From positions 32,001-96,000 of IMG/VR virus record IMGVR_UViG_3300042384_000288: a stretch of 64,000 nucleotides of DNA; one strand, 5' to 3'. Under the pieces are notes generated by a model, which saw only the letters and a program-made list of their open reading frames with translations, had not been told where the DNA came from and ran no database searches. Below, one piece after another: positions 21,476 through 52,528 of the stretch; within the stretch, counting starts at the first letter, position 1, and each line of letters opens with the position of its first letter. This DNA is from a virus. A program made the position numbers and the translations under genes.

Positions 21476-21490
21476 ACAGGACCTTTAAAA

Positions 21491-22393
21491 ATGACTACTA
21501 TTGTAGATGTGGCAGATTTATCAACTATTTATCTAAGTTATGACGAGCCGAGAAAAGAAGAGTTTTGGATTAAGATTCAAAACATGGTTCCGTGGGCTAA
21601 ACGTGTAGATGGGGTTAAGGGCAGTGATGCCGCGCACAAAGCCGCAGCGTCAGCCAGTGATACCGATCGCTTTGTGTTAATCGACGGAGATAACATACCA
21701 GACCCTGCCTTCTTTAATCTTCAGTTGGTATTGGATAACATATCCAGTAATAAAGTTTTTCGGTGGCGAGCCAAGAATCAAATAAACGGACTACAGTACG
21801 GTAACGGTGGACTAAGCTGCTGGACTAAAGAGTTTATAGAAAATATGCAGACACATGAAGCCAGCGATGGCAGTGCGGCTAACGATGTAGAGTTTTGCTT
21901 CTATCCTAATTATTGGGCAATGAGTGATTGCTACAGTACAACATACCCTAACGCTACACCATTTCAAGCATGGCGAGCAGGATTCCGCGAAGGCGTTAAG
22001 ATGTGTTTAGATCGTGGAGCAAAGCCCCCAATGGAAGAATTTGAGCGACGTGTACATAGTCGTAACTATGATAACTTATGTATTTGGCAAACCGTCGGAG
22101 CAGATGTTGAGAATGGATTTTGGGCTATACTCGGAGCACGTCAAGGTACGTATCTAACAATGTTAGAAGATCAATGGGACTACAAACAAGTACAAAATTT
22201 TGATGCGCTTGAAAAACTATGGAATGAATACGAAAGTATCAATGAACCCATAGATCACTGTAACCACTTAGGTGATGTATTACGTACTCGTTTAGGGTTG
22301 CCTATTGTAGACATGAATCCAGATGAAAGCAAGTTCTTTAAACATCATTATAAAAGTAACTTTAAGAATCAAGGCATAATGGTGCGTGAATAA
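21491..22393 (+). CDS. GT-A-like protein (SYDEP family)
   Basis: IYLSYDEP...RVDGVKGSDAAHKAAA...FVLIDGDN (DxD)...YGNGG...PFQAWRAGFREGVK. Homologous to the C-terminal domain of 38179..41238. Confidence 0.55.
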   Translation: MTTIVDVADLSTIYLSYDEPRKEEFWIKIQNMVPWAKRVDGVKGSDAAHKAAASASDTDRFVLIDGDNIPDPAFFNLQLVLDNISSNKVFRWRAKNQINGLQYGNGGLSCWTKEFIENMQTHEASDGSAANDVEFCFYPNYWAMSDCYSTTYPNATPFQAWRAGFREGVKMCLDRGAKPPMEEFERRVHSRNYDNLCIWQTVGADVENGFWAILGARQGTYLTMLEDQWDYKQVQNFDALEKLWNEYESINEPIDHCNHLGDVLRTRLGLPIVDMNPDESKFFKHHYKSNFKNQGIMVRE

Positions 22394-29179: not shown

Positions 29180-31731
29180 GCGACGAGCCAAGCAAAAAAT
29201 TAACAGTACATCACAAAAATCACAATTACAATACTCGTAAACCTGTTTATATACACGAAGATGATTTAACCAAAGATCATACATATAAACTGATAGAAAG
29301 TAAACACTTCTGCATGATACCGTGGACGCACATGCATGGTATTCCCGATGGTCGAGCATATCCCTGCTGTCTGGGTGAAATGCATTTGCCGATTGGTAAT
29401 TTCAAAGACAATACCATGAAGGAAGTATGGAATGGAACTCCGTACAAACAGATGCGTCTAAACATGTTAGAAGATAAACCCAGCAAAGAATGCACACGCT
29501 GTTACGAGCAAGAAGATAATGGATTCTTTAGTATGCGCAATAGCCAAAATAAAAACTTTGGTCATCATATTGCATTAACAGATAAAACCAATGCCGATGG
29601 AAGTTTAGATGACTTTAAACTACGCTACTATGATGTACGTTTCTCTAATCTATGTAACTTTAGTTGTCGTACCTGTGGTAGTTTGTTCAGCAGTAGTTGG
29701 TACGCAGAAGAAACTAAACTATTTGGTAAATTAAACCATCCTCAGATTATGTTTGCTGGTAAAAATAAAGATGACATGTGGGAACAGATGCAGGAACATA
29801 TCCCATACCTAGAACAGATTTACTTTGCCGGCGGTGAACCATTGATTATGGAAGAACACTATCGCATTCTCGAAGAATTAGTCAAACGTGAAATGTTCCA
29901 TGTACGATTGATCTATAATACAAACTTTAGTCACATACGTCTTAAAGATAAGATGGTGTTTGAATACTGGAAACTGTTTGATACAGTTTGTGTAGGTGCA
30001 AGTTTAGATGACTCGTATCTCCGCGGAGAGTACATACGTAAAGGTACAGACTGGGCAGAAACAGTAGAAAACCGTCGCAAAATGATTGAAATTTGCCCCA
30101 ATGTTGACTTTTATGTTAGCAGTACAGTTAGTATACTCAATGCCTGGCATTTGACTGAATTCCATAAAGAATGGGTCGACCTTGGTTTGATTAGAGCAAT
30201 GGATTGGAATGTAAATATTTTGCAAAGTCCAGAACGTGATCGAATTGATGTATTACCAATTCAATTTAAAGACAGAATTAAACAACGAGTTGAAGAACAT
30301 ATTGCCTGGCTAGCTCCAATAGATCAACTGCAACGGGCTACTTCTGGTTATAAAGCTATTATTACATTCATGTATCAAGATGATAAGAGTCACTTATTGG
30401 GAGAATTCTTTAAGATAAATGATCAAACTGATGAATTCCGTAGAGAAAAATTTGAAACGATATTTCCTGAATATCGAGAGTTGCGCAATCACTTAGGCAT
30501 TAATAAAACGCATGATAGTATTTGTATGTTGCCGTGGGTCAGTTTAGAAGCTAGCCCAGTGGGTACTGCTCGTCCGTGTTGTCTGGCTAAAGATGAAATT
30601 ACCAAACCCAACGGCACTCCGTATAAACTAAAAGAAAGTTCATTGGCAGAAATTTATAACAGTGAATATATGCAGAATCTTCGACAACAATTTCGACGCG
30701 GTGAAAAGCCTAGTACATGTAATCGTTGTTGGAGTGAAGAAGATGCCGGCATAGTTAGTAAACGTATCAACAGTAGAATTAGACTTAAAGAATTCTATCC
30801 TATCGTTGATTGGAAAAATGACACGCCAGATCAACTATGGTTTATTGATTTAAAACTAGGTAATATCTGTAATCTTAAATGTCGTATATGTGGATCATGG
30901 TCTAGTAGTAAATGGGCCAAAGAAGAAATTGATTACGAGTCTAGGAAATACAAAGAGGTACAAGGATACAATCGCAAACAACATAGTGCATACAAATTTC
31001 TACAAGATGGCACATGGCCAAGAGAAAGCGAAGTATTTTGGGAAAATTTAAAAGAACTACTGCCCAATATCAAGTACTTTGAATTTACCGGTGGAGAACC
31101 ATTCTTAATTGAAGAACATTTTAAACTATTACGCTATGCAGTCGACCACGGGTACAGTAGTCGTATAGATATACACTATAATACCAATGGTACAGTATAT
31201 CCGACAGATGAAGAAGCTAGTCTATGGGGTAAATTTCGAAATGTTGAGATCGCTGTTAGCATAGATAATACCGAAGAACGATTTGAATATGAACGTTACG
31301 GTGCCAACTGGAAAGAAGTAACAGTCAATGTAGTTAAATTTAATGCAATGAGAACTAATTTAATTAAAACACAAGTTTGTATGACTGTAAACATACAAAA
31401 TGTTTATTACTTGCCAGAATTGTGTGATTGGGTTAATACTCAATCTTTTGATATGGTGCATTTTAATATGTTACATGATCCCAATGTAATGTGTATTAAT
31501 CGTATGACTCCTGTTGCACAAAAATTAGTTATAGATAGATTAACCGTTTATCCGTTCAATGTCAAACATCGAGTAGAAATTGATAAAATAATTCAATTTA
31601 TTGAAAACGGCCAAGGCAGCGATGGTACAGAATTTGTACAGAAAATGCAACAGACTGATGTGTATCGTGAGCAGAGTATGTTAACTACACATAGAGAAAT
31701 TGCACTAGCAATGGGCTATGTTGAAGCCTAG
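29176..31731 (+). CDS. Fusion of two N-Twitch radical SAM units
   Basis: Unit 1: CMIPW..PCC..CTRC, CNFSCRTC, GGEP. Unit 2: CMLPW..PCC..CNRC, CNLKCRIC, GGEP. Confidence 0.9.
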   Translation: MSDEPSKKLTVHHKNHNYNTRKPVYIHEDDLTKDHTYKLIESKHFCMIPWTHMHGIPDGRAYPCCLGEMHLPIGNFKDNTMKEVWNGTPYKQMRLNMLEDKPSKECTRCYEQEDNGFFSMRNSQNKNFGHHIALTDKTNADGSLDDFKLRYYDVRFSNLCNFSCRTCGSLFSSSWYAEETKLFGKLNHPQIMFAGKNKDDMWEQMQEHIPYLEQIYFAGGEPLIMEEHYRILEELVKREMFHVRLIYNTNFSHIRLKDKMVFEYWKLFDTVCVGASLDDSYLRGEYIRKGTDWAETVENRRKMIEICPNVDFYVSSTVSILNAWHLTEFHKEWVDLGLIRAMDWNVNILQSPERDRIDVLPIQFKDRIKQRVEEHIAWLAPIDQLQRATSGYKAIITFMYQDDKSHLLGEFFKINDQTDEFRREKFETIFPEYRELRNHLGINKTHDSICMLPWVSLEASPVGTARPCCLAKDEITKPNGTPYKLKESSLAEIYNSEYMQNLRQQFRRGEKPSTCNRCWSEEDAGIVSKRINSRIRLKEFYPIVDWKNDTPDQLWFIDLKLGNICNLKCRICGSWSSSKWAKEEIDYESRKYKEVQGYNRKQHSAYKFLQDGTWPRESEVFWENLKELLPNIKYFEFTGGEPFLIEEHFKLLRYAVDHGYSSRIDIHYNTNGTVYPTDEEASLWGKFRNVEIAVSIDNTEERFEYERYGANWKEVTVNVVKFNAMRTNLIKTQVCMTVNIQNVYYLPELCDWVNTQSFDMVHFNMLHDPNVMCINRMTPVAQKLVIDRLTVYPFNVKHRVEIDKIIQFIENGQGSDGTEFVQKMQQTDVYREQSMLTTHREIALAMGYVEA

Positions 31732-33004
31732 TACACTTTGTCTTGCGCCCTGGGTACATACATACCTAAGCCCTCAGACCGAACGACGTATGTGCTGTGC
31801 CAGTCGCGAACCTGCGCAAAATTTTGAACAATATATTGACGTCTCGGCGGGTACAGGGCGTTATATACCAATAACTCTGGATGAACACTGGAATAGCGAG
31901 CACATGCGGTCGGTCCGTCGTCGCATGATTGCTGGGGAAACCCTCCCAGAGTGTGAGGTATGTAATGATAAGCTGTTGAACACATCAGTTTACCGTAGTT
32001 ATTTTGATTCTATGTTCGGACATAAATATTTACAAGTAACAGACACAACAGATTCAACAGGTTACACAACTATGCGCCCTGTGAGTTGGGATTATAGATT
32101 TAGTAACTTATGTAACTTTAAATGTCGTATGTGTGGTGATATGTTATCAAGTGCTTGGGAAACTGAGCAACGTCAACATAATATGATTAACTGGCATAAC
32201 CCCAAGAACAATTGGATGAAGCCAGAAGTAAAGCAAGAAATTACAGCATTTCAAGATAGTCAAATTGAACAGGAGTTTGCTCAAGCAGTCGAAGATCATC
32301 AAGTTGAAGAAGTATATTGGGTTGGCGGTGAGCCACTGATGTATGAACAACACTGGCGTTATATGAAACGCATTATTGATTTAGGAGATGGTCCGAATGC
32401 TTACGCACGGTACAATACTAATCTTAGCCGCGTCAACTATCGCGGTGTCAATCTCTACACTGACATACTTTCTGGGCTACGCGACTGGCAAATCTGTGCC
32501 AGTATCGACGGAACTGGAAGAATTGGAGAGTACATTAGAACAGGCCTTAATTACAATACATGGCTTGAAAACTTCCGTGAAGGAGTTAAAACAGCCACTC
32601 ATCGTAGACAAATGCGAATTGATTTCACCCTCACTCTGCCGGGATTGTTTGAAGTTAAACAAATCATGCAGCTTGCTTCAGAAGAAAACGTAGACATACT
32701 AGCTAAAGTTGTTTTCAGCTTTAGCCCAGACATTATCCTTAGTCCCCTTGCCCTACCTCGTCACTTACTACATCCGTGGTTAGATGAACTAATCCCGCAA
32801 ACTTCTGGTGCCATGCAAGATATACTTGTGCAGTTAAAATCACGACCAACGTTCGATGAGCAATGGCCCGATACATATAAGAAAGAGCTTGACAAAGGTA
32901 AGCAACGTGTGTTACAATTAGAGAGTATACGTGGCGATACATATACGTTAGCAGACATATTAAAAGAGAGACCAGCTGTATATGAATGGTATCAATCAAT
33001 CTAA
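31718..33004 (+). CDS. Radical SAM protein with N-terminal SPASM/Twitch-like domain
   Basis: CLAPW..MCC..CEVC, CNFKCRMC, GGEP, YNTN. Confidence 0.9.
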   Translation: MLKPSTLCLAPWVHTYLSPQTERRMCCASREPAQNFEQYIDVSAGTGRYIPITLDEHWNSEHMRSVRRRMIAGETLPECEVCNDKLLNTSVYRSYFDSMFGHKYLQVTDTTDSTGYTTMRPVSWDYRFSNLCNFKCRMCGDMLSSAWETEQRQHNMINWHNPKNNWMKPEVKQEITAFQDSQIEQEFAQAVEDHQVEEVYWVGGEPLMYEQHWRYMKRIIDLGDGPNAYARYNTNLSRVNYRGVNLYTDILSGLRDWQICASIDGTGRIGEYIRTGLNYNTWLENFREGVKTATHRRQMRIDFTLTLPGLFEVKQIMQLASEENVDILAKVVFSFSPDIILSPLALPRHLLHPWLDELIPQTSGAMQDILVQLKSRPTFDEQWPDTYKKELDKGKQRVLQLESIRGDTYTLADILKERPAVYEWYQSI

Positions 33005-34136
33005 AATAACCATAACTCTACGCAATCCATTGGATCACAACGATCTATTGGAATATCATATCATTCCTGATGATCACCAATTGGCTAAAGATTGGATAGT
33101 AGCATTAAAAAAAATACTTAACGATAAAAAATTGATAGAAAAGAATTTTTGTTTTTTAGGGTTTCCTTCAACATCTCGTAGTATAGACTATCTTTGCGAT
33201 CAGCTAAATCAAGCAGTGTGTCAAATTAACATGTTTAATCAATCTAATGTATGGCAAGCGGCTGGATTAAAATCTTATGTAATTGAAGAACATTTTTCTG
33301 CTGAAACTGTTAGATTTAGTGACGCCTATACTATTAGTAAAGGCCCAGACAACTTAGGAATGCGCCTTAAACATTCAATAATGAATCGTATACACAACGA
33401 TTTTGAAAGACTTCAAGGAACAGTTGATCATTTAAGTGACTATTATAGATTGGCTGATTACAATACCAAATATGCAATACGTCAATTAAATATTTTATGT
33501 CATGAATTGGAAACGTTGGTTCTGTCTCAGCGAAAATTAATACAAAATCCAACTTGGGTGCGTCCAAGTCAAATAACAACATTTTTACATGCTGACCGTT
33601 ATAGCTTAAGTAATCAACATCGAGAATTATTTAAACAAAATGGATACGATAGACAGTTTGGGCATGTTTATATGCATTGGGCACAAATTGGAAAAACTTT
33701 GTTTGAAGTATTTCGAGACGAGCATGCACCTAAACTAACTGATACTATCTGCGATGCTATTAATCATCTTCAATATTATAGTGGAGAATTTGACGTAGAA
33801 TGGGCTAATGATGTAATATACAACGACAAAAACACCCCATGGCACACTAAATTAATTGATGAATTTAATCAATGGTTAGAGGATAACGGGTTTGACCCAA
33901 ATGATTCACAACTAAGTTTAGGGCATCTGCACATAGGCGAAATTAACGTAAAGTCTGCATTTGGTACTACTTCTACAGACAAAGTTTGGGATATACTTAG
34001 TAATTACCTTGATATATACCGTATAGAAGTAGATGGGGTTAGTAATCAATTTGATTATTGTTGGACTGACAGTGACTACAAGCAAAAGCAAATAGATATG
34101 ATGAGGGAAGGGTATGACTATAGTAGTAGGGGGTGA
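32982..34136 (+). CDS. Hypothetical protein
   Basis: 384-aa ORF overlapping both neighbours; no motif recognised. Confidence 0.75.
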   Translation: MNGINQSKITITLRNPLDHNDLLEYHIIPDDHQLAKDWIVALKKILNDKKLIEKNFCFLGFPSTSRSIDYLCDQLNQAVCQINMFNQSNVWQAAGLKSYVIEEHFSAETVRFSDAYTISKGPDNLGMRLKHSIMNRIHNDFERLQGTVDHLSDYYRLADYNTKYAIRQLNILCHELETLVLSQRKLIQNPTWVRPSQITTFLHADRYSLSNQHRELFKQNGYDRQFGHVYMHWAQIGKTLFEVFRDEHAPKLTDTICDAINHLQYYSGEFDVEWANDVIYNDKNTPWHTKLIDEFNQWLEDNGFDPNDSQLSLGHLHIGEINVKSAFGTTSTDKVWDILSNYLDIYRIEVDGVSNQFDYCWTDSDYKQKQIDMMREGYDYSSRG

Positions 34137-34932
34137 TAGTTTTATTTGGGGCAGTGAACTTGCTGATAATATAGTAGAATTCAATGAAGAAACACAGGAA
34201 TTAGTACACGAAATAGTCAGTCAAAGCACGTTTACAGCATTGTTAGCCAAAGATATGAATCAACAGTATGCGTGCGTGGCATATCCTGGATATGCCAATG
34301 GTGCAATTCGTAGAACAGTTATGAATGCTTGTGAGCGCATACAAGATATAGATCTAGTGGTTGTTTGTTGGAGTTTTTTAAGCAGATACGAATTTCGATT
34401 TGTACAGGATACAGAAGAAAGATGGGGACATTGGTATAGCATAACTCCATGGTCTGCTATAGACGACATTAACACTATTAAAAAAGGTTTTAAATCAGAT
34501 AATCCTACTATTTTAGAACATCATGTTAATAATCTTAAGCGAGCTAAACGCACTGGGATATCTTCTTTCGCTAAATCATTTTATCAACACGTAGGCACCG
34601 CCTGTTATTATGAATTATGGAGTAGCTATACAGAAATAGTGTTGTTGCAGCAATATCTACAATTAAAAGGGATACCATACATTTTTACCACTGTGGATGA
34701 AAGCCTATTAGAACAGTACAAGAATTGGTCAGACGAGTCAATAAGTACATTGTATAATCAAATTGATCTTTCGCGGTGGGTCATGTTTCCCGGCAATCGT
34801 GGATTTTATACCTGGGCCAGCGATGAAAATTATTTGTTCGGTACTACACACCCGTTAGAACAAGCTCATTATGATGCATACAAATATATTAAGGAGAAAT
34901 ATCATGACATGGTTACGCCGTATTATAAATAG
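34114..34932 (+). CDS. SGNH/GDSL-like hydrolase or acyltransferase
   Basis: N-terminal GDSF.WG, G..N, C-terminal THP..AH. Confidence 0.6.
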   Translation: MTIVVGGDSFIWGSELADNIVEFNEETQELVHEIVSQSTFTALLAKDMNQQYACVAYPGYANGAIRRTVMNACERIQDIDLVVVCWSFLSRYEFRFVQDTEERWGHWYSITPWSAIDDINTIKKGFKSDNPTILEHHVNNLKRAKRTGISSFAKSFYQHVGTACYYELWSSYTEIVLLQQYLQLKGIPYIFTTVDESLLEQYKNWSDESISTLYNQIDLSRWVMFPGNRGFYTWASDENYLFGTTHPLEQAHYDAYKYIKEKYHDMVTPYYK

Positions 34933-35005
34933 AATCAAACTTGAAATTCAATATCGTAAAAAGTTAAAAGAACTACGCAAAAGAGATCCTTTCATTTACA
35001 AATAG
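34904..35005 (+). CDS. 33-aa basic peptide MTWLRRIINRIKLEIQYRKKLKELRKRDPFIYK, below the ORF-track cutoff
   Basis: Strong AAGGAG RBS; the stop lies 1 nt before the next ATG. Confidence 0.75.
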   Translation: MTWLRRIINRIKLEIQYRKKLKELRKRDPFIYK

Positions 35006-35006
35006 T

Positions 35007-35645
35007 ATGCGATTATTAACAGTCGGCGACAGCTTTACCTATGGCGAAGAGTTATCTGATGCAACCAAATCTTGGCCAAATGTACTGGGTCAATATTTAG
35101 GATATGAAGTTACAAACTTAGGCCAACCAGGCAGCGGCAATACACAAATAATTAGAAAAGTAGTAGAGAATATACACAATTACGATTTAATTATTATTGC
35201 TTGGAGTCATTATGCTAGAATAGAATTTGCAGATAAAAATGGAGTATTCGACATCTGGCCAGGAGCCAATTTGGCTGTACATAATTTTCTACCTTATAGA
35301 AAAGAACTAGTTAATTATGTAACAAAATATTATAACGATTTATATTTTTATCAACAATATCTTGTTAATATTTTGCTACTGCAGGGATATCTAGTACAGC
35401 ACAAACAACAATACCTAATGGTTAATTCTTTTGGTAATAATTGGGATGATTTTAAAGACAAAAATAATATAACACAATTAGCTGAGCAAATTGACACTAA
35501 TTATTTTTTAGGATGGCCCAATGACCAAATGGTTGAATGGACATACGGATGTGCCAAAGGACCCGGTGGGCATTTCTTAGAAGACGGGCACAGAAAGGTA
35601 GCGGAAAAAATCAATGAACATATTAGGTCTTTGGGATGGATTTAA
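35007..35645 (+). CDS. SGNH/GDSL-like protein
   Basis: VGDSFTYG, NLGQPGSGN, C-terminal GGHFLEDGH. Confidence 0.65.
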   Translation: MRLLTVGDSFTYGEELSDATKSWPNVLGQYLGYEVTNLGQPGSGNTQIIRKVVENIHNYDLIIIAWSHYARIEFADKNGVFDIWPGANLAVHNFLPYRKELVNYVTKYYNDLYFYQQYLVNILLLQGYLVQHKQQYLMVNSFGNNWDDFKDKNNITQLAEQIDTNYFLGWPNDQMVEWTYGCAKGPGGHFLEDGHRKVAEKINEHIRSLGWI

Positions 35646-35796
35646 CACAGTATCCATTGTGATGTTCTTGTTTACCTTTAGCAACCTGATCACGCATTGC
35701 TGGTAAACTTAGTTTGTGGGTTTTACAAAATTCTGCTAAATTATTGGTCTGCTCAATGTTATAATACCAATGGGTGTATTTGTTTGTTAAATACAT
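35623..35796 (-). pseudogene. Internally deleted HNH homing endonuclease (57 aa)
   Basis: MYLTNKYTHWYYNI (compare MIFINNKYTNIYYNI of 20798..21475) joined directly to a C-terminal DNA-binding-like segment NLAEFCKTHKLS; no HNH core. Confidence 0.7.
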
Positions 35797-35868
35797 TTGC
35801 TGATGCTCCTTTACAAGCGTTAGAGTAGTTGGATATGTCGAGTATCGCGAACTACACTTATATTTATC
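35797..35868 (-). promoter_or_regulatory. Late promoter plus structured leader of an endonuclease gene (copy 1)
   Basis: ATAAATA..GTAGTT-CGC-GATA-loop-TATC-C-AACTAC-TCTAAC..AAAGGAGC..TCAGCAAATG; homologous to 50490..50560. Confidence 0.65.
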
Positions 35869-35885
35869 AAATAATTATGGAAATT

Positions 35886-37376
35886 ATGAATATTCTCGGA
35901 ATTAGTGCTGGGTTTCATGACGCAGCCGCAACATTAGTTAGCAGTCAAGGTGAGATATTATTTGCTGGGCATAGCGAACGCTACAGCAAGCATAAGCACG
36001 ACAGTGACCTACACAGTGATCTAATTACAGATGCTGTTAGATACGGACGACCTGACTGTGTGGCCTACTACGAAAGACCTTGGGTCAAAAAAACTCGACA
36101 ATTGTATGCAGGACAATACAGTGAATTAAAACAAGGGTGGACTGTACGAGGAATGCTTAAACGTACAGTTCCTGAAATTAGTCACTTACCAATTACCGCA
36201 TATAATCATCACCTTAGTCATGCCGCTGCAGGATTTCAAACAAGTCCGTTTGACACTGCAGCAGTGGTAGTAATTGATGCTATAGGTGAGTGGGATACTA
36301 TTAGTATTTGGTCAGCAACGTATAACAATGCAGGTCAAGCAAAATATACTAAAGTATGGGGTCAAAAATATCCGCATAGTATTGGCCTAATGTACTCAGC
36401 TTTTACTCAGAGTGTTGGGCTCAAACCTATGGATGAAGAATATATTCTAATGGGCATGGCTGGATGGGGCAAACAACAGAATTGGTTCCAAGCTGACAAT
36501 CTTAAAGCTAGCCTAATAGAAGATGAAGTAGCAATGATCTTTAAACATAATTTACATATTGGCTTGCCGGGCAAGATTAAAGGTAATTGGACTAATGAAG
36601 ACACAGCACGAGCGGCACAAGAACTTGCAGAAGATTTGATTAGCAATGTTATGCACCGTGCCAGCGAACTTGTACCAAATAGCAATTTAGTCTATTGCGG
36701 TGGTGTAGCACTTAACTGTAGTGCTAATCGTATGTTAGGAGAATACTTTGACAACATTTGGATTATGCCTAATCCTGGCGACGCTGGCAGCAGCCTTGGG
36801 GCAGCGGCCCTTAAATACGGTAAGAGATTGGTGTGGCGCGATGCTTATCTTGGCCACAATATTAGCGGGGACTATCCTGTTAGACAAATCATATCTGAAC
36901 TCGTTACTAACAAAATTGTCGGAGTTGCAAGTGGTAGGGCAGAGTTTGGACCCCGAGCCTTAGGCAATCGTAGTTTATTAGCAGACCCACGTGGTGACAC
37001 AATTAAGGATCAGGTAAATGAAATCAAACGAAGACAAAAATTTAGACCATTCGCTCCAGTTATATTGGAAGAACTTGTCCATGAGTATTTTAGCATGCCT
37101 CGCAATTGGAATAGTAGCCCATATATGCAAACTGTCGCTGAGTGTCGTTATCCTGATCAGTTCCCTGCTATTGTGCATATTGATGGTACCAGCCGTGTGC
37201 AGACTGTGCCAAAAGACGGATCAGGAATAAGACAGTTATTGGAACAGTGGTACACTTGGACAGGTTGCCCTATGTTGTTAAACACTAGCTTGAACATTCG
37301 AGGAGAGCCAATGGTCAATGATCGTGCAGATGCTGACCGATTCGAGCAATTATACGGAGTTCGTGTTTTATCATGA
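35886..37376 (+). CDS. O-carbamoyltransferase (CmcH/NodU/TobZ family)
   Basis: MNILGISAGFHDAAA, ERYSKHKHD, HHLSHAA, DAIGE, GGVALNC, PGDAG, EFGPRALGNRS, RPFAP, LLNTSLN. Start moved to the MNILG ATG. Confidence 0.95.
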   Translation: MNILGISAGFHDAAATLVSSQGEILFAGHSERYSKHKHDSDLHSDLITDAVRYGRPDCVAYYERPWVKKTRQLYAGQYSELKQGWTVRGMLKRTVPEISHLPITAYNHHLSHAAAGFQTSPFDTAAVVVIDAIGEWDTISIWSATYNNAGQAKYTKVWGQKYPHSIGLMYSAFTQSVGLKPMDEEYILMGMAGWGKQQNWFQADNLKASLIEDEVAMIFKHNLHIGLPGKIKGNWTNEDTARAAQELAEDLISNVMHRASELVPNSNLVYCGGVALNCSANRMLGEYFDNIWIMPNPGDAGSSLGAAALKYGKRLVWRDAYLGHNISGDYPVRQIISELVTNKIVGVASGRAEFGPRALGNRSLLADPRGDTIKDQVNEIKRRQKFRPFAPVILEELVHEYFSMPRNWNSSPYMQTVAECRYPDQFPAIVHIDGTSRVQTVPKDGSGIRQLLEQWYTWTGCPMLLNTSLNIRGEPMVNDRADADRFEQLYGVRVLS

Positions 37377-41238: not shown

Positions 41239-42073
41239 CATTATCTACATCACTTTTAGGAGTTTTTCTGGTAGTAACGCAATCAATAAAATGTTCTAAT
41301 TCTAATTGCAGTGGGCTTTTATTTAGATCTGGTATATAACTTTCGTCTAATTTAAGTTCAGTAAGTTTACAGTCAATGACAGTGCCTTGATATAGATCTA
41401 CACAATTAGCTACATCATCCCATACAATACTACCTTGTTCGCCAATAATAGTGATCTTACGAATCTTTTCTGGCCAATACCAGCTGCCGGTAATGCGCAC
41501 TGTGGCATCTCCAGCAATCATATTGAAGTTTACATAATCTGGTTGCTGATTGTTGGTAAATCTGGCGGCATCTACGTCAGCAACCAAAATATTTTCGCCT
41601 AATAGTTCTAACATAATGCTAACGTCATGTGTAAGTAAAGTATGCATTGGTGTAGTTTTGGTTTGATAGATACCCCAATTAAGTCGTTGACTGTCTACAT
41701 GTTTAATTTTACCAATACGATAAATATTTTTTTTAATCCACTTTATAGCGGGGTGATATAAGAATATATGGCCAACCATTAATATTCTATCCCCTTGTAA
41801 ACCTTTAAACAATTGGCAACAATGTTCTGTTTCTGCTAATGGTTTTTCAATGTAACAATCAAAACCTCGTGTTAATAATTTAGCACCTGTGTTAAAGTGA
41901 TCCCATACGGGTGTGGCTACTATCGCAGTCTTGATATTGGAGTCAATATCATCAATATTCTGTTTATTTTTAATATCGATGATTTGAAATTTACCCACTG
42001 CAGGATTATTTTCTAAACTGCTAATGATCTTGTTACCCCAATAACCACCGCCAATTAATGCTATATTAATCAT
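41180..42073 (-). CDS. Gfo/Idh/MocA-family oxidoreductase
   Basis: IGGGYWG, ATP..H, IEKP, VGH.F.YHP, HD. Confidence 0.9.
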   Translation of the reverse strand: MINIALIGGGYWGNKIISSLENNPAVGKFQIIDIKNKQNIDDIDSNIKTAIVATPVWDHFNTGAKLLTRGFDCYIEKPLAETEHCCQLFKGLQGDRILMVGHIFLYHPAIKWIKKNIYRIGKIKHVDSQRLNWGIYQTKTTPMHTLLTHDVSIMLELLGENILVADVDAARFTNNQQPDYVNFNMIAGDATVRITGSWYWPEKIRKITIIGEQGSIVWDDVANCVDLYQGTVIDCKLTELKLDESYIPDLNKSPLQLELEHFIDCVTTRKTPKSDVDNAIAVAKVVDAVVDRLDLVR

Positions 42074-43154
42074 TTTGTACCCACGCTTTAACTAAGTTAA
42101 TAATATAATCTTGTTGTTCGATAGTCAAGGTATGATAACAAGGTAAACTGACAATTCTACGACACATAGCTGATACTTTAGGTGTGGGCTCTGTTATGTA
42201 TTTTTGGAATATTGGCTGTTCATTTAGACTTTCTAAGTAGTGTACATTACAAGTAACTCCTTTGGCCTTCATGTATTCAATAAATTCATCTCTACGGGGA
42301 ATTTCTATTACATAAACATAATAGGTATGATAACACCAATCATATTCTTTAGGTGTTACTACATAGTCTTTTAGCTGTTCAGTATAACGATGACAGATAC
42401 TACGTTTGCTATCTAACCAACGATCTAAGTGTGGAAGTTTAGCCTGTACAACTGCGGCCTGCAGATTATCAATACGTGCGTTAATACCGCGTACTTCAAA
42501 CGTCCATTTGTTTTGACGTCCATGATTGTTATACATTCTGCATTTAGCAATTAATTCTCGACTGCCTGTAATAGCACCAGCATCACCCATAGCACCTAAG
42601 TTTTTAACAGGATTAAAACTAAAACAGGTCAAATCTACTAAACTACCTACTTGTTTGCCTTTGTACCTAGTACGTACACTATGAGCGGCATCTTCAATTA
42701 ACCATAGATCATATTTGTCAGCTATCTCACGTAAGCGATCAATATCTGGTGTGTGGCCATACATGTCTACAAATAGAATAGCTTTGGTCTTATCGGTGAT
42801 TCTGCGCTCAATTTGATCTACATCAATTTGGTGATTATCATCTATATCAACAAACACAGGATTAGCACCCTGCCAAATAATTGCTTCGCTGGTACTGATA
42901 AATGTGTGTGGAGTTGTAATAACTTCGTCACCTTGTGTAATACCTATCGTCATTAACGCACACATAAGAGCAGTAGTTCCACTGCCAGTAGCACAGCAAT
43001 CTTCTGCTTCTACAAAGTCAGCAAACGCTCGTTCAAATTCTGTGGTAATACTACCTGCAATAAAACCACTACTGTCGATCACTCGACGGATAGCTTGATC
43101 TATTTCAGTTTTAATTTCTAAATTTTGTTTTGTTAAATCGGTAAAAGGTATCAT
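42066..43154 (-). CDS. DegT/DnrJ/EryC1/StrS PLP-dependent sugar aminotransferase
   Basis: MIPFTDL, SGTTAL, EDAAH, FSFNPVKNLGAMGDAG, NARIDNLQAA. Confidence 0.95.
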   Translation of the reverse strand: MIPFTDLTKQNLEIKTEIDQAIRRVIDSSGFIAGSITTEFERAFADFVEAEDCCATGSGTTALMCALMTIGITQGDEVITTPHTFISTSEAIIWQGANPVFVDIDDNHQIDVDQIERRITDKTKAILFVDMYGHTPDIDRLREIADKYDLWLIEDAAHSVRTRYKGKQVGSLVDLTCFSFNPVKNLGAMGDAGAITGSRELIAKCRMYNNHGRQNKWTFEVRGINARIDNLQAAVVQAKLPHLDRWLDSKRSICHRYTEQLKDYVVTPKEYDWCYHTYYVYVIEIPRRDEFIEYMKAKGVTCNVHYLESLNEQPIFQKYITEPTPKVSAMCRRIVSLPCYHTLTIEQQDYIINLVKAWVQND

Positions 43155-44122
43155 TAATTTCCCTTCCATAATATGGGATTTTTTAAATACCAATTATAGT
43201 ATCGATAAAATCCTTCTTCTACATCTACTGTGGGTGTATAGCCTAATTCTTGTTGAGCACAACTAATATCCAATCGACCTCGTTTAGGAAAACTTAAGTC
43301 ACGTGGTGCTATTTCTAACTGCCCTTGACCTGCAATTTTAACCGCAAGTTCGGCAGCATCTTTCAAAGTCCATTGGCGTTTTTCTGAACGTGTAATGTTA
43401 TAGATATTACCGTTGGCTACGTCTTTAGTTGCTGCAAGCACAATACCCATAGCAGTATCTTCTACATAGGTGAAGTCTAATACTTCATCTGGACCATTTA
43501 CCTTAAGTGTTTCGCCACGCATGGCTTTGGTCATAAACTTACTGACCACACGATCCTCGACGTCCCATTCACCGTATACAGCACTTGGACGAATAATCAC
43601 ATGTTCAAACCAACCACGGCGACTATAATCTTCTACAAGTTTCTCACCCATATACTTCATAATGCCGTATTGTCCGATTGGCTTGCAGACTGCATCTTCA
43701 GAAACATCAGCAGTGAAATCACCGTAGACCATGCTTGAACTAATGTAGACGAACTTCTTAACACTGTGCTTTTTACATGACTCTAATAGGTTAATTAATC
43801 CGGTTGACATAACTTCGCTGGCTGTGGCTGGATCTTGCTCTACTACTTTTTGGCGCGGATAGCTGGCCATATGTATAACTACATCAACTTCGCTAACACC
43901 AATCGTAGTGTCTAACTTATGTTGATTGCGTATATCTACTGGATATACTTCTGAAGCAAAACGTCGACTGCGATGCTGGCTTAAGTAGTTGATTTCTGAT
44001 TGCGGAATAAAACCGTAGCCAGTATTAGTATCTACTACCACGCATTCGTGTCCTTGTGATTCTAAAATGCGTGTGACATTGTGTCCAATAAATCCAGCAC
44101 CACCTGTGATTAAGTACTTCAT
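43154..44122 (-). CDS. NAD-dependent nucleotide-sugar epimerase/dehydratase
   Basis: ITGGAGFIG, SSSMVYG, YGIMK (YxxxK), DFTYVED. Confidence 0.95.
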   Translation of the reverse strand: MKYLITGGAGFIGHNVTRILESQGHECVVVDTNTGYGFIPQSEINYLSQHRSRRFASEVYPVDIRNQHKLDTTIGVSEVDVVIHMASYPRQKVVEQDPATASEVMSTGLINLLESCKKHSVKKFVYISSSMVYGDFTADVSEDAVCKPIGQYGIMKYMGEKLVEDYSRRGWFEHVIIRPSAVYGEWDVEDRVVSKFMTKAMRGETLKVNGPDEVLDFTYVEDTAMGIVLAATKDVANGNIYNITRSEKRQWTLKDAAELAVKIAGQGQLEIAPRDLSFPKRGRLDISCAQQELGYTPTVDVEEGFYRYYNWYLKNPILWKGN

Positions 44123-48348: not shown

Positions 48349-48773
48349 TAAAACGGTATCTCTTCGTCGTACTCTTCACCTAATTGTGCTCGCCATTCGT
48401 TGACGTCTGTTGCGCCAATTATACCTTCAACTTTACGACCAGTTTTAATAGTACGCAGTAATTGTCGATTACGCTCGGCCTGTTCTTTTTCGCTACGTTT
48501 CTTATCATTGCCAAGTTTAAGCATCTCTTCGTAGCCGCGAGCCCATTCAACGCCAGTTAACCAGGTATTGATCTCCTCAAGTGTACCTATAAAGATATCG
48601 GCATCACGACTGTAGTGTGGTAAACAATCTTCCTTAGGTTTTAAACAGATATAACTTATAATGTTGTTAGCACCATAGTTATAATTAGCTGAAGAAGAAA
48701 ACTTAAACCCAAGCTCTTCTGCTCGAGCTTCTACACGTTTCATACGCTGTACATCATCCCAACCTAAGGTCAT
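48348..48773 (-). CDS. Hypothetical protein
   Basis: TAATG overlap with the vWA gene. Confidence 0.65.
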   Translation of the reverse strand: MTLGWDDVQRMKRVEARAEELGFKFSSSANYNYGANNIISYICLKPKEDCLPHYSRDADIFIGTLEEINTWLTGVEWARGYEEMLKLGNDKKRSEKEQAERNRQLLRTIKTGRKVEGIIGATDVNEWRAQLGEEYDEEIPF

Positions 48774-50062
48774 TACGCATGTTCCTTACTTAGTTCATAA
48801 TATGCAGTTTGCCCAAATGGTGCAGTAATATTAGTAGTACCGTGAATTACAAACAGTGTTTCACAGTAGTCCTCATCACCCCAACCGTTTCCTGGGTATC
48901 CATCTGTAAACATAACAAGGAATTTAGGAGCAATTTCATTAGCCTTCATGAATTCCCAGTTAGCTTCAAATGTAGTACCACCACCACCTTGTACGTCATA
49001 AGTGTCAATGTCGTCAATGTTGTCTGGAGTAAATGTCGCCATGCCATACACATCTGTATCAAATGACCAAACACGTAGTTTGAAGTCATCAAATGCCTGC
49101 ATAATACCTTTGACTTCACTTAGAATATCACGCAACATACCTTCACTCATACTACCTGACGCATCAATACTCACACAAACATCAATGGTTTCTGCAAAGT
49201 TAGTACCTGGAAATACTGCATCCATGTGCCAGCTACGACGACTTGGCTTCATCCAAGTGTAATCACTTTTTACCAAACTTTGGATCTGTTGACGAATCAA
49301 TTCGCGCCAGTTCATCTGTGGGTTAGTTAATGTATTAATCATACGTTTAACACCTGCTGGCAAGTTACCTGCACCTGCAGCCTCTGCCGCATGCAAGACA
49401 GCATTACGTATTTCGTCACGTAATGCTTTCTTTTCTTCAGCAGTCATTTTACTAGGACGTCCGCTACCTTCGCCTTCTTTGTTACCATTTTTACCAGGAC
49501 TATTGCCGCCCTCACTATCTCCATCATCTTCATCTGGGTCTAAGTGTTCATCTAGTAATTGCTTCATCAGCGCATCGATATCAATTTTGTCAGCATTAGC
49601 ATACAAGTCGTCGTATACTTCTTCTGAGCTCCAACCGTCGTATTTCTTGTTGTATAGTCCAACTGGAATAAAGTCACCAATTTTTTGTTGTTTCAAATCA
49701 CTATTCACACAATAGTCTGCCGCCGCATTATATAGTCGCGCATCTCTATCACCACGACGTCCCATGTGATCGTAAACAACGTGCAGTACTTCATGCCCCA
49801 TCAGGAACTCAATTTGTTTCTGTGGTAGTTTATTAATAAATTCGCTGTTATAGTAAAAGCTTCTACCATCAGTAGCTGCTGTACCGCACCACTCATCTGC
49901 ATTAACAAGTTTTAAACGTGTTGCTAAGTTACCAAAAAATGGCGCCTTAAGTAGTAGGGCAATACGTGCTGTAATAAGTTTTTCACGTACAGCTGCATCA
50001 GTACGTGCATCTGTTACAGTAACTACTTTTTTCTTTTCTGCACTAGTTGTTGCTGTTGCCAT
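48773..50062 (-). CDS. Metallopeptidase-like plus vWA domain protein (DUF2201-type)
   Basis: TAATDG, HEVLH (HExxH), N.AAD..VN, IDASGSM (MIDAS), GGGGT.F, FTDG. Confidence 0.85.
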   Translation of the reverse strand: MATATTSAEKKKVVTVTDARTDAAVREKLITARIALLLKAPFFGNLATRLKLVNADEWCGTAATDGRSFYYNSEFINKLPQKQIEFLMGHEVLHVVYDHMGRRGDRDARLYNAAADYCVNSDLKQQKIGDFIPVGLYNKKYDGWSSEEVYDDLYANADKIDIDALMKQLLDEHLDPDEDDGDSEGGNSPGKNGNKEGEGSGRPSKMTAEEKKALRDEIRNAVLHAAEAAGAGNLPAGVKRMINTLTNPQMNWRELIRQQIQSLVKSDYTWMKPSRRSWHMDAVFPGTNFAETIDVCVSIDASGSMSEGMLRDILSEVKGIMQAFDDFKLRVWSFDTDVYGMATFTPDNIDDIDTYDVQGGGGTTFEANWEFMKANEIAPKFLVMFTDGYPGNGWGDEDYCETLFVIHGTTNITAPFGQTAYYELSKEHA

Positions 50063-50093
50063 TTACTACTCCTAATCGTTTACTATAACAGCT

Positions 50094-50122
50094 ATTATAC
50101 ATTCAAATGTGATGCTTGTCAA
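50094..50122 (-). promoter_or_regulatory. Consensus sigma70 promoter
   Basis: TTGACA-17-TATAAT. Confidence 0.8.
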
Positions 50123-50424
50123 GTTGAAAATTTCAGTGTAAAGAACGCCAGCGTCGCTTCATCTCTTACGTAAAGTTTTCTATTACCAAACTCTGTATTC
50201 CATGCCCACTGACCACTAATACAATCTATAGGATCGGTATGAATCTTACCAAACCGCATAAAGGCCTCAATCTCGCAACTTGGACCAAATGATTCCCAGA
50301 ACCAAACTCGATGCTGTTGAAAGGTCAGACTTGCCCCATACTTACCAAAGTAGTCTATGACGTGAGTAAAGTATCCACTGCCATTATACCTTGCATCCAT
50401 CTTCTTAATTTTAAATTCTGCCAT
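50119..50424 (-). CDS. Hypothetical protein
   Basis: ORF with its own consensus promoter. Confidence 0.65.
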   Translation of the reverse strand: MAEFKIKKMDARYNGSGYFTHVIDYFGKYGASLTFQQHRVWFWESFGPSCEIEAFMRFGKIHTDPIDCISGQWAWNTEFGNRKLYVRDEATLAFFTLKFST

Positions 50425-50450
50425 ATCGATACCATATTATTGTAAAGCAT

Positions 50451-50479
50451 ATTATAACATAGAAGTTTGGGGATGTCAA
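50451..50479 (-). promoter_or_regulatory. Consensus sigma70 promoter
   Basis: TTGACA-17-TATAAT. Confidence 0.8.
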
Positions 50480-50489
50480 TTGGAGAAAT

Positions 50490-50557
50490 GATAAATAGAT
50501 GTGTAGTCCACGATATCTCACTATCCGACTACTCTAACATAAAGGACTATGTCAGCA
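50490..50557 (+). promoter_or_regulatory. Late promoter plus structured leader of an endonuclease gene (copy 2)
   Basis: ATAAATA..GTAGTC-CAC-GATA-loop-TATC-C-GACTAC-TCTAAC-ATAAAGGACTATG-TCAGCAATG. Confidence 0.65.
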
Positions 50558-51205
50558 ATGTATTTAACCTCACCTACCTATGCTTATGTTTATAAGTGGA
50601 CAGAATTATCAACCGGACGTTGGTATATTGGCTCACGCACCAAGCACGGATGTAACCCCGCAGATGGCTATATTTGTAGTAGTCGCATAGTCAAACCTTT
50701 AATTGAATCCAACCAAACCAATTGGATTCGAACTGTGCTGTGCATTGGCCACGCTGTTGATATGTTAGCATTAGAGACCGCATTACTAACGCTTGCAGAC
50801 GCTAAAAACGACCCTTTGAGCTACAATCAACACAATGGTGATGGCAAGTTTACTGGATTAAACAGACCTTGTATATTTAAAGGTAAGAAACTTGGACCAC
50901 AGTCAGATGAAGCAAAAATGAAACGCTCGATTGCTCACAAAGGAAGAGTTAAGTCCGAAGAACATAAACGAAGAATTAGCGAATCTAAAAAAGGAACTGC
51001 TCCTTGGAATAAAGGTACAACAGGGTTACAAGTTGCTCACAACAAAGGCACAAGAATGTCCGAGGAACAGAAGCAGAAAATTAGAGATACTAAAAAATTA
51101 AATCCTCGACCTGCTTGGAATAAGGGAATAGCATCTACTCCTGAAGCAGAAGCTAAACGATTGGCATCACGTGCTAAAAATCGCCAAAATAAAAGCGCCA
51201 TTTAA
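50549..51205 (+). mobile_element. GIY-YIG (Seg-like) homing endonuclease with NUMOD3-like repeats
   Basis: YVYKW...WYIGSR, Y..SS, E...L, YN; SEEHKRRISE and PWNKG repeats; inverted relative to neighbours. The start may be 50558. Confidence 0.85.
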
Positions 51206-51218
51206 GACGCTTTTATTT
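51187..51218. terminator. Probable bidirectional terminator
   Basis: AAATAAAAGCG-10-CGCTTTTATTT between convergent genes. Confidence 0.65.
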
Positions 51219-51243
51219 ATTTGCTACTTAAGAACTGGTCTTA

Positions 51244-52341
51244 TCACGCAACGGCCGCTACCACGTAACGACCAAAGCGTTTGTGGAACTCATCGAAGTT
51301 TTTCAACTTGTTTGGTACAAACGGTAAGTTGTAAGTAGTAAGTGCAACACGTGCGCCCATGACAGTTACTTCAGTGGTAAAGTTATCCATCATAAACTTA
51401 AAGAAGTTATCCGCCATGTCGTGCCATTTAGCATTGTCTTCCTTGCCAAATTTAGCATAGGCATCTTGCAATTCATAACACATACTAATAGTCAAAGAAT
51501 ACATTGCTGAGATTTCTTTAATCTGCAATTCTTTAACCTTGCCAGCTAATACATCTTCTGGGTTAGGCAACTTGCTGGCAATTTTACGGTGTGCCATAAA
51601 CTTAACAGCAGTACCGTCACCGATAGTACCTGCTACCAAATCAGTTACAGTGCTATCTGCCATACCATCGTCGAGCAAGCTACTTACAAAACTCCAGCTA
51701 CGTGGGGTTGCAAAGCTACGACTTGAGCTCTTAGGATCAAAGTCATATAAGTCTTGTTTAGCAAATGAGATGTAACCAATTACGTCTTTGTGGATACGAT
51801 TCTCGGTAGCCCACTGTAACCAACTCTCAAAGTCTGGACGCATTTCCAAATGCACAAATCTGTTAGCTAATGGCGCTGGCATTCTGTAAGTAACACCTTT
51901 GTCACCTTCTCTGTTACCTGCCGCAATAATTACCACATTATCAGGCAACACATACTTACCGATACGGCGGTTCAACACAAGTTGATAAGCCGCGGCCTGT
52001 ACACTTGGAGCCGCCGAGTTCATCTCATCTAAAAATAGCGTTACCACAGGATACTTAGCCGCATCGGCTTCACTTGGCAAGTCAATTGGAGGCGCCCAAT
52101 CCATCAAACCTAAATCTTTATTGTAGTAAGGAATACCACGGATATCTGTCGGGTCCATCTGCGCCAAACGTAAGTCATACATACGCCCGCCCATTTCTTT
52201 AGTGATGCCTTCTACAAGTTCACTCTTACCAATACCTGGAGGGCCCCATAAGAACAAAGGACGTTTTTTATCAAAACAACGTAGTATTGCAGCTTTAGCT
52301 TCTAGTGCTGTTACTGTACGATTTTCTGTTACTGCTGCCAT
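51244..52341 (-). CDS. MoxR-like AAA+ ATPase
   Basis: GPPGIGKS, LFLDEMN, AAGNR, PLANRF, TPRSW; AGGAG RBS before MAAV. Confidence 0.9.
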   Translation of the reverse strand: MAAVTENRTVTALEAKAAILRCFDKKRPLFLWGPPGIGKSELVEGITKEMGGRMYDLRLAQMDPTDIRGIPYYNKDLGLMDWAPPIDLPSEADAAKYPVVTLFLDEMNSAAPSVQAAAYQLVLNRRIGKYVLPDNVVIIAAGNREGDKGVTYRMPAPLANRFVHLEMRPDFESWLQWATENRIHKDVIGYISFAKQDLYDFDPKSSSRSFATPRSWSFVSSLLDDGMADSTVTDLVAGTIGDGTAVKFMAHRKIASKLPNPEDVLAGKVKELQIKEISAMYSLTISMCYELQDAYAKFGKEDNAKWHDMADNFFKFMMDNFTTEVTVMGARVALTTYNLPFVPNKLKNFDEFHKRFGRYVVAAVA

Positions 52342-52387
52342 AATCAACTCCTATCAATTAATAAACTTGCCTAACACAACAAAAACT

Positions 52388-52415
52388 ATTATACACTCTT
52401 TTACACTTTTGTCAA
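52388..52415 (-). promoter_or_regulatory. sigma70-like promoter
   Basis: TTGACA-16-TATAAT. Confidence 0.65.
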
Positions 52416-52499
52416 GTACTTTATGCAAAGCAAACACTTAATTTATAGAAATTTCAATAGGCATATTTTATCTGCGCTTTGTTGTTAATGTATGTAAAC

Positions 52500-52528
52500 A
52501 TTATACAGTCATTTTGCTAATTTGTCAA
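52500..52528 (-). promoter_or_regulatory. Consensus sigma70 promoter, in tandem with the previous one
   Basis: TTGACA-17-TATAAT. Confidence 0.75.

Follow-up and report, generated by a model that had tools for sequence, protein, structure and literature searches.

A portable cassette with a covarying fold that fits the antisense strand heads unrelated endonuclease genes of uncultured T4-like phages

The window analysed here is a stretch of 64,000 nt of viral DNA (positions 32,001 to 96,000 of the IMG/VR record IMGVR_UViG_3300042384_000288, which spans 111 kb and is estimated by CheckV to be 32% complete), and it carries, on opposite strands, two look-alike stretches that we call copy A and copy B. 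Each is one copy of a cassette, portable and some 80 bases long, that heads many unrelated endonuclease genes in uncultured T4-like phages. We propose that the cassette is a pair of convergent late promoters, one of which would yield a two-hairpin antisense RNA capable of pairing with the leader of the nuclease mRNA and of limiting its translation or stability late in infection, a reading that we hold to be about evenly poised between right and wrong. The parts of the two copies, with the reading frames behind them and one related feature of the same record, are as follows (sense refers to the strand of the nuclease gene).

Copy A, 50490-50497, + strand: sense late-promoter-like box GATAAATA; the predicted mRNA start (+1) is G50503, 5 nt past the box
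Copy A, 50503-50532, can form on both strands: helix 1, with outer stem GTAGTC 50503-50508/GACTAC 50527-50532
Copy A, interior of helix 1: CAC bulge 50509-50511 (a CAC/C internal loop), inner stem GATA/TATC 50512-50515/50522-50525, loop TCTCAC
Copy A, 50533-50538, + strand: TCTAAC
Copy A, 50542-50546, + strand: Shine-Dalgarno AAGGA, with ACATA/TATGT on either side
Copy A, 50534-50555, - strand: helix 2 around AAGGA, 8-9 bp in the antisense RNA (CUGAC AUA / UAU GUUAG), about 3 reliable bp in the sense RNA
Copy A, + strand: CAGC 50553-50556, ATG 50558, TATTTA 50561-50566
Copy A, 50561-50567, - strand: mirror-image late-promoter-like box TTAAATA, over endonuclease codons 2-4; predicted antisense +1 at about 50556/50555
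Copy A, 50490-50556, - strand: predicted antisense RNA, two hairpins and then the tail ACAUCUAUUUAUC; it may continue into the open reading frame (ORF) 50424-50119
Gene A, 50558-51205, + strand: homing endonuclease of 215 aa, GIY-YIG type by motifs, with NUMOD3, backwards between leftward host genes
Copy B, 35868-35861, - strand: sense late-promoter-like box GATAAATA; predicted mRNA +1 at G35855
Copy B, 35825-35855, both strands: helix 1, GTAGTT 35855-35850/AACTAC 35830-35825, CGC/C internal loop, GATA/TATC, loop CTCGACA
Copy B, 35824-35819, - strand: TCTAAC
Copy B, 35800-35823, + strand: helix 2 around AAGGAG 35811-35806 (GCT/AGC flanks), 8 bp in the antisense (+ strand) RNA
Copy B, - strand: CAGC 35802-35799, ATG 35796, TATTTA 35793-35788
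Copy B, 35787-35793, + strand: mirror-image late-promoter-like box TTAAATA, aimed at a carbamoyltransferase gene; predicted antisense +1 at G35799
ORF B, 35623-35796, - strand: 57-aa remnant, overlapping the 3′ end of the gene 35007-35645
Same record, outside the window, G000:C1:18539-18739, - strand: gp55-like (T4 late sigma) match, E 5e-6, in a 291-aa open frame

A preliminary description of this DNA, made from the sequence before any database search, had reported the same layout in the two stretches, and every feature that it listed is found in each copy. The likeness is also above chance, since BLAST within the 111-kb record aligns A and B with 79% identity across 80 nt (E = 1.9e-11), and a covariance model built from relatives scores copy B at 91.4 bits and copy A at 69 bits; neither BLAST nor the model finds further copies in the record. 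The start of gene A is best placed at 50558 rather than at the first ATG, 50549, because of the family alignment and the Shine-Dalgarno spacing. For its product there are matches to PHROG 314, "homing endonuclease" (E 9e-24), and to Pfam NUMOD3, as well as the motifs YVY...YIGS; a sequence search of the PDB gives no match. The Pfam GIY-YIG domain stays below threshold, which qualifies the earlier label of a GIY-YIG gene. Likewise, the "HNH relic" behind copy B is right for residues 1-14 of ORF B, the only part that matches HNH-type endonucleases (79% to the scan locus L034), and no HNH or other nuclease domain is found in it. The possibility that ORF A and ORF B are related proteins was rejected: all they have in common is a MYLT start at the nucleotide level.

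The wider family was collected by a single exact-pattern scan of IMG/VR (CTACTCTAAC, gap, AAGGA, gap, ATG), which gave at least 119 loci; the family counts given below refer to the matches listed in that scan. Among these loci, 102 of 121 matches have the whole layout and reduce to 87 distinct copies, or 89 with A and B, and the records that carry the cassette hold two to seven copies each. A covariance model, R1, recovers extra copies that lie outside the search pattern. The preliminary description had called for a search of Rfam, and no family was matched: there are no hits above the gathering score on either strand of the 64-kb window, and over the element itself, with a limit of E ≤10, only noise at E ≥6. 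In 185,579 species genomes a strict pattern occurs on three contigs only (L131, L132 and L133), all from metagenome-assembled genomes of Bacteroidota, which are probably phage DNA binned with its hosts. The assemblies are assigned to uncultured Bacteroidetes, Mucilaginibacter and Haliscomenobacter, a weak hint at the hosts. Among cultured phages, megablast with the 5-kb surroundings finds no match, and blastn with a typical cassette finds one partial match only, a divergent but true copy in Rhizobium phage RHph_I1_18 (MN988519.1 80276-80380, or 1501-1605 of L127; 47 bits). It stands before EVB91_137, a gene annotated as hypothetical with a TTG start and a product that begins MTIY, and the gene upstream of it is divergent.

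The genes behind the cassette, among them several GIY-YIG subfamilies, bear out the earlier suggestion that it is portable and goes with nucleases from unrelated families. We scanned 77 ORFs, 76 behind related copies plus the window's own, and 49 of them match the homing endonucleases of PHROG 314; in Pfam, 25 carry NUMOD3, 13 GIY-YIG, up to 11 one of the HNH families (HNH, HNH_3, HNH_4, HNH_5) and two a TnsA-like domain. These TnsA-like (PD-(D/E)xK) endonuclease ORFs are found with a cassette at L037 and L045, and another at L096 4317-4754; the "Vsr-like" homing endonucleases in Dassa et al. 2009 may be the counterparts of these ORFs. Intact cassettes are also found before orphan or decaying endonuclease ORFs, of 15 aa at L068 7700-7801 (- strand), 96 aa at L040, 87 aa at L103 and 107 aa at L106.

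The covariation of the hairpins, which had been read at first from two copies, is strong across the family. Within helix 1, the fifth position of the 6-bp outer stem is U-A in 55 of the 89 copies, G-C in 24 and A-U in 6, and the sixth is U-A in 81 and C-G in 8; an internal loop C-R-C / Y follows, and then an inner stem of 3-4 bp with three or four pair types per position, where the first three positions are 100% Watson-Crick. Over the outer and inner stems of helix 1 together, pairing is at 97-100%, and five of the positions show 3-4 pair types. In helix 2, the always-paired covarying positions beside AAGGA read AT 40/GC 49, TA 31/CG 50/GC 8 and TA 70/AT 12/GC 4/CG 3. Throughout the cassette alignment, 10 of 19 pairs vary on both sides, and none of 500 shuffles reaches either the covariation score or the paired fraction; when one partner is slid by 1-3 columns as a control, the paired fraction falls from 99% to 29-50%. 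Outside the search pattern, GTAG/CTAC is swapped for GTGAGT/ACTCAC, GTCCGT/ACGGAC, GCCGAT/ATCGGC or ACTGAT/ACCAGT, and the C of CTAAC is replaced by T always together with a partner A.

Which strand folds can be told from the pairs themselves. The same 19 pairs are standard in 99.0% of cases on the antisense strand versus 87.4% on the sense strand, and in the helix around the Shine-Dalgarno the figures are 98.6% versus 74.1%. The difference arises because several positions read A.C or C.A in the sense RNA but G.U in the antisense RNA: five pair positions are canonical only on the strand opposite to the gene. In 89 copies, two of these discriminating positions read CG 29/CA 60 and AU 72/AC 17; in 88 copies, another is A.C in 87 and the R:Y pair of the helix 1 internal loop is GC 58/AC 17/AU 13; a few more lie in the outer stem. 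A sense-strand wobble G.U never occurs at the discriminating positions. On the antisense RNA, moreover, the sense motifs CTAAC and CAGC become the two arms at the base of the 8-9-bp helix 2. Folding of the cores with ViennaRNA points the same way, with a lower minimum free energy for the antisense strand in 80 of 89 copies (mean -16.3 versus -12.4 kcal/mol; Wilcoxon p 5e-15; z -1.8 versus -1.2; -17.1 versus -11.3 kcal/mol for copy A and -16.8 versus -10.6 for copy B). Since the conserved fold fits the strand opposite to the gene, the cassette probably makes an antisense RNA and not a folded mRNA leader. The preliminary description had assigned the fold to the mRNA leader, an assignment that these comparisons do not support; its second hairpin around AAGGA has just 3 reliable pairs in the sense RNA, and nothing points to the self-cleavage for which it had suggested an assay.

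The same picture is suggested by two boxes that face each other across the cassette. All 89 copies have a sense box, [N]ATAAATA (NATAAATA) or CTAAATA, and GTAG follows it at a distance of 5 nt in 58 copies and of 3 nt in 25. Just past the ATG stands TATTTA(T), which repeats the upstream TAAATA box in reverse complement. Of 87 related copies, 74 have kept it, 55 of them at 5 nt from CAGC. It begins 0, 1 or 2 nt after the ATG in 10, 9 and 54 copies, thus in all three frames, and because of this the ORFs begin MYL.., MIFI.. or MxIY... TATTTA is kept in 20 of 22 non-GIY genes, and alike in co-oriented (19/21) and divergent (46/54) loci. As it is independent of the frame, holds a fixed spacing to CAGC and is kept in non-GIY genes, it is a signal at the nucleotide level, and the conserved gene start is better put down to a mirror-image late-promoter box than to a shared N-terminus.

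Late promoters of T4 consist of a bare 8-bp TATA box at -13..-6, which is found in either polarity (PMC2988020), and NATAAATA is the late promoter of T4-like cyanophages (PMC2984593). Besides the gp55-like frame of the window's own record, such ORFs are present in 4 of 5 other carrier records, and TAAATA is enriched about 3-fold upstream of the window's genes (12 observed versus 3.9 expected). The spacing rule of T4 puts the predicted sense start on the G of GUAG, where helix 1 begins, and the predicted antisense start on the G of GCUG. Past helix 1′, whose mean energy is -9.1 kcal/mol, the next 10 nt of the predicted antisense RNA include 5 U or more in 82 of 89 copies, a tail that looks like a weak terminator.

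Put together, these features suggest a two-strand cassette of about 80 bp, bounded by face-to-face boxes of the T4 late type, NATAAATA on the gene strand and its mirror image TATTTAT inside codons one to four of the gene. About 55 nt would separate the predicted starts, which face each other, so the transcripts would be complementary over the whole 5′ untranslated region (5′ UTR), including the Shine-Dalgarno. From its 5′ G, the antisense RNA would run through a hairpin of 8-9 bp with the loop UCCUU, the complement of the Shine-Dalgarno, then a single A, a bulged hairpin of about 11 bp and a U-rich tail complementary to the sense promoter. Pairing of this RNA with the nuclease mRNA leader would block ribosome binding or trigger decay, and the nuclease would thereby be held down late in infection, when the copy number of the template is high. 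What the sequences show is the family, its covariation and strand signature, the promoter-like motifs with their spacing, the tie to nucleases and the bias in orientation; that either promoter fires, that the antisense RNA exists and what it does, we infer. A bolder extension, which we offer tentatively and consider somewhat more apt to fail than to hold, is that of a dedicated class of cis-antisense RNAs of 60-80 nt with a late promoter in the first codons of their target, a portable "governor" exchanged among GIY-YIG, HNH and TnsA-like nucleases, in which variable stems and loops would give copy specificity and the invariant junction GUUAG-A-GUAG would be the recognition site of a phage or host factor.

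The orientation of the genes adds a further side to the proposal. The upstream neighbour is divergent in 54 of 75 loci, and likewise at both window copies, and its start is often 12-70 nt from the cassette; the nuclease gene lies backwards to both flanks in 31 of 49 loci, versus 7 where it is co-oriented. Because nuclease genes thus mostly sit backwards in clusters of host genes, the same promoter may feed the neighbouring gene too, and it would probably restart the transcription of the host gene adjoining the insertion. A second role as an outward promoter and leader for that gene is therefore likely in the backwards arrangement.

That role could even be the principal one, with the mirror box and its structured transcript serving mainly to restart a neighbour cut off by a backwards insertion, the antisense RNA being the 5′ leader of that neighbour and any effect on the nuclease secondary. 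This is in our judgement rather unlikely, although the bias towards divergent and backwards loci speaks for it, and both window copies are of this kind: the B box at 35787-35793 aims at the probable start 35887 of the carbamoyltransferase gene, where no sigma-70-like promoter was found. Cassettes, moreover, outlive a working nuclease, as in the 57-aa remnant of the window and the 15-aa one at L068:7700-7801, and T4 offers a precedent in the promoters for neighbouring genes within segG, segA, segE, mobB and mobC, which favour retention of the endonuclease (PMC2988022). A promoter, however, has no need of a conserved two-hairpin fold with invariant junction nucleotides, TATTTA is kept equally where the upstream gene is co-oriented (19/21), and the neighbour of copy A has a perfect sigma-70-type promoter of its own at 50479-50451. 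The cis-acting mRNA leader of the preliminary description, in which helix 1 at the 5′ end would stabilise the mRNA or bind a regulator and helix 2 would mask the Shine-Dalgarno, strikes us as distinctly unlikely. Helix 1 does begin exactly at the predicted +1, shows many compensatory changes and is 97.5% paired on the sense strand, so this helix alone does not discriminate between strands; RNAalifold recovers both hairpins from the sense alignment, and RNA structures limit nuclease translation in T4 and Aeh1 (PMC2988022). The extension of sense helix 2 beyond its three pairs, however, is A.C or C.A in 17 to 87 of 88 copies, partner changes at the discriminating positions always keep the antisense pairing and never a sense wobble, full sense leaders fold no better than shuffles (z -0.8 and -0.6), and the frame-independent TATTTA is left unexplained.

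A temporal switch of the T4/Aeh1 type, in which a read-through RNA would pair AUAAAUA with UAUUUAU and hide the start in a three-way junction while the late RNA, lacking the 5′ arm, is translated, appears very improbable. The two boxes are indeed exact reverse complements flanking the leader, and the mechanism is known for I-TevI, segB and Aeh1 mobE (PMC2988022) and is invoked by Dassa et al. (PMC2677866). Yet sense read-through is unlikely with an upstream gene that runs the other way in 54 of 75 loci, closure of a 60-nt multiloop by six or seven A-U pairs would be weak and is not predicted by RNAalifold, and TATATA variants occur without compensation in the promoter. Finally, an element acting as DNA, for instance an operator bound by a phage protein or a hotspot at which nuclease genes recombine and swap 5′ ends, with hairpins that are incidental or act in single-stranded DNA, seems to us a little less probable still. 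The boundaries of the cassette at the two boxes are sharp, its joining to unrelated ORFs in three reading frames indicates recombination at its 3′ edge, and I-TevI binds an operator over its own late promoter (PMC2988022); but compensatory changes whose wobbles are specific to one strand bear the mark of RNA pairing, and no single autorepressor protein could be common to GIY-YIG, HNH and TnsA-like enzymes.

Several observations weigh against antisense control itself. Copy B joins a perfect cassette (91 bits) to a dead nuclease, which fits a role for the neighbour better than control of the nuclease, and helix 1 is equally well paired in the sense RNA. The sense box never deviates, whereas 13 of 87 copies have a variant mirror box, such as TATATA or TAGATA. 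Conservation of the mirror box is also in part a matter of protein in GIY-YIG genes, because ATT TAT encodes the Ile-Tyr of the catalytic motif. A simple scan calls no terminator at either copy, and the tail is not a canonical one. In three freshwater metatranscriptome runs (Logan contigs, one study) no transcript over the cassette is seen: the contigs contain 6-8% of the sequence words from 48500-52500, cover the flanking genes in part and nothing from 50242-51447, and are uninformative as to strand and ends. The copy counts are of sequences, not of independent events. Finally, the search pattern fixed CTACTCTAAC and AAGGA, so that their invariance in the main set is there by construction, a caveat that is answered by the compensatory swaps of stem pairs in the copies outside the pattern.

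Copy A lies between a MoxR-type ATPase gene (51244-52347, - strand) and the ORF 50424-50119 (- strand), which is followed by a DUF2201/VWA gene; gene A thus separates the MoxR-type AAA ATPase from its usual partner, a DUF2201 metallopeptidase/VWA protein (48773-50062; PHROG 1314), both on the - strand. The sigma-70-type promoter beside cassette A (50479-50451, - strand; TTGACA, 17 nt, TG-n-TATAAT, 12 of 12 matches) aims at the ORF 50424-50119 and is likely an early promoter of the leftward cluster. Copy B is flanked by a GDSL/DUF6071 gene (35007-35645, + strand) and by the carbamoyltransferase gene (+ strand), whose start is probably 35887, as its PHROG alignment begins at residue 20 of a TTG frame. 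The latter genes belong to a cluster at 26428-37376 and 42066-43193, with three radical-SAM-like genes (26428-31731), two DUF6071/GDSL-like genes, a Nol-type carbamoyltransferase, a small kinase and an aminotransferase, which looks like an island for the modification of sugars or nucleotides in a jumbo phage. At the 5′ end of the window, an open frame of at least 3757 aa (3-11276) runs off the edge. A second face-to-face pair resembling late promoters, TATAAATA at 21464-21471 (+ strand) and GATAAATA at 21533-21526 (- strand), lies at the divergent genes 20798-21475 (- strand) and 21491-22393 (+ strand), with each box inside the first codons of the other gene; 5′ ends from these boxes (21464-21533) would overlap by about 55 nt, without the hairpins of the cassette.

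The cassette is real, widespread and uncurated, and the antisense mechanism is testable. Among the selfish genes of large lytic phages, homing endonucleases are the main ones, and the means by which a phage tolerates dozens of them are understood for only a few cases in T4; if our proposal is true, a cassette that heads hundreds of unrelated nucleases would add antisense control like that of RNA-OUT to the known ways of taming endonuclease genes. For RNA biologists, it would be a new, abundant and well-defined phage RNA motif that is missing from Rfam. For annotation, the cassette shows where an endonuclease gene truly starts (here 50558, not 50549), points out dead relics and predicts late promoters on either strand. 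Backwards insertion combined with a promoter that faces outward suggests, in addition, how insertions avoid polar effects on host genes.

The novelty that had been claimed for the element holds in so far as it is absent from Rfam, and is limited by an earlier report. Dassa et al. 2009 (PMC2677866) described free-standing endonuclease genes of "fractured genes" in marine and freshwater metagenomes. Of 16 5′ UTRs, 15 have a hairpin and 10 a TATAAATA box, and the stem is formed by two conserved motifs that complement each other; the hairpin is common to unrelated endonuclease families and persists at a locus that has lost its endonuclease. The cassette and this element, compared by description only, are probably the same family. 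In the text considered here, the hairpin is read in the sense direction, as of the T4/Aeh1 type, with no antisense promoter, strand test or covariation analysis, and the loci are co-oriented with a split host gene, unlike the mostly backwards genes of the cassette. A link to split inteins or fractured genes was rejected at two co-oriented loci, L096 and L003, which have TnsA-like, DruA-like and SMC-like flanks and no inteins. Motif strings of the cassette, searched in the full-text literature, return unrelated primer matches only.

Antisense RNAs over homing endonuclease genes do exist in T4-like phages, as shown by CfrI of cyanophage S-PM2, a detected RNA of about 225 nt that links an endonuclease gene and psbA (Millard et al. 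2010, as summarised in PMC2984593). Like the RNA proposed here, CfrI runs opposite to a homing endonuclease gene that is free-standing. Its locus was rejected as a member of the cassette family, since model R1 has no match at the endonuclease and psbA, and its best hit (17 bits, E 1.4) lies elsewhere.

In T-even phages and Aeh1, the endonuclease genes I-TevI, I-TevII, I-TevIII, segB and mobE have hairpins that sequester the ribosome-binding site, with a late promoter embedded in them (PMC2988022). The cassette is similar in its TATAAATA-type late promoter directly upstream, in an RNA structure near the ribosome-binding site and in its presumed purpose, the limiting of a potentially harmful nuclease. 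It differs in that the stable sense hairpin of T4 hides the ribosome-binding site and the late transcript starts inside it, while the promoter of the cassette is upstream of both hairpins, the sense hairpin at the ribosome-binding site is feeble, the fold is selected on the other strand, and the genes are mostly backwards, where sense read-through is not expected. Thus, of the marks of these bypass hairpins, the cassette has the late promoter and lacks the stable sense hairpin, the start inside it and the co-oriented read-through unit, and the earlier remark that it is more elaborate than the hairpins of T4 endonuclease genes was apt. The promoters for host genes embedded in T4 seg and mob genes (PMC2988022) lie inside an endonuclease gene, serve the neighbour and favour retention, as the mirror box may do too; they point in the same direction as the endonuclease gene and belong to no portable cassette, whereas the mirror box is opposite, within the first four codons, and would head a folded RNA.

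The closest parallel in design is RNA-OUT of IS10, a 69-nt RNA that overlaps the translation initiation region by 35 nt and mediates multicopy inhibition of the transposase (PMC5006887). As in the RNA-OUT/RNA-IN pair of IS10/Tn10, convergent promoters stand tens of nt apart at the 5′ end of a gene, a folded antisense RNA would face the initiation region, and a selfish element would limit its own enzyme. The sizes are also comparable, with a conserved antisense part of about 55-70 nt and an overlap of about 55 nt for the cassette, known here from sequence alone. Of the hallmarks of RNA-OUT, 74 of 87 copies have a promoter-like box that points against the gene from inside its 5′ end, a match at the level of sequence only; selected antisense stem-loops are present as well, and complementarity to the initiation region follows from geometry. 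In contrast, there is no homology of sequence or structure with RNA-OUT, both promoters of the cassette would be phage late promoters dependent on a gp55-type factor, there are two hairpins instead of one, the overlap covers the 5′ UTR and the Shine-Dalgarno with the AUG just outside, and the enzyme is a homing endonuclease in a lytic phage. The cassette is not a member of the IS10 RNA-OUT family; we rate it about as likely as not that it works in the same manner, as an antisense brake that a selfish element carries on its own enzyme.

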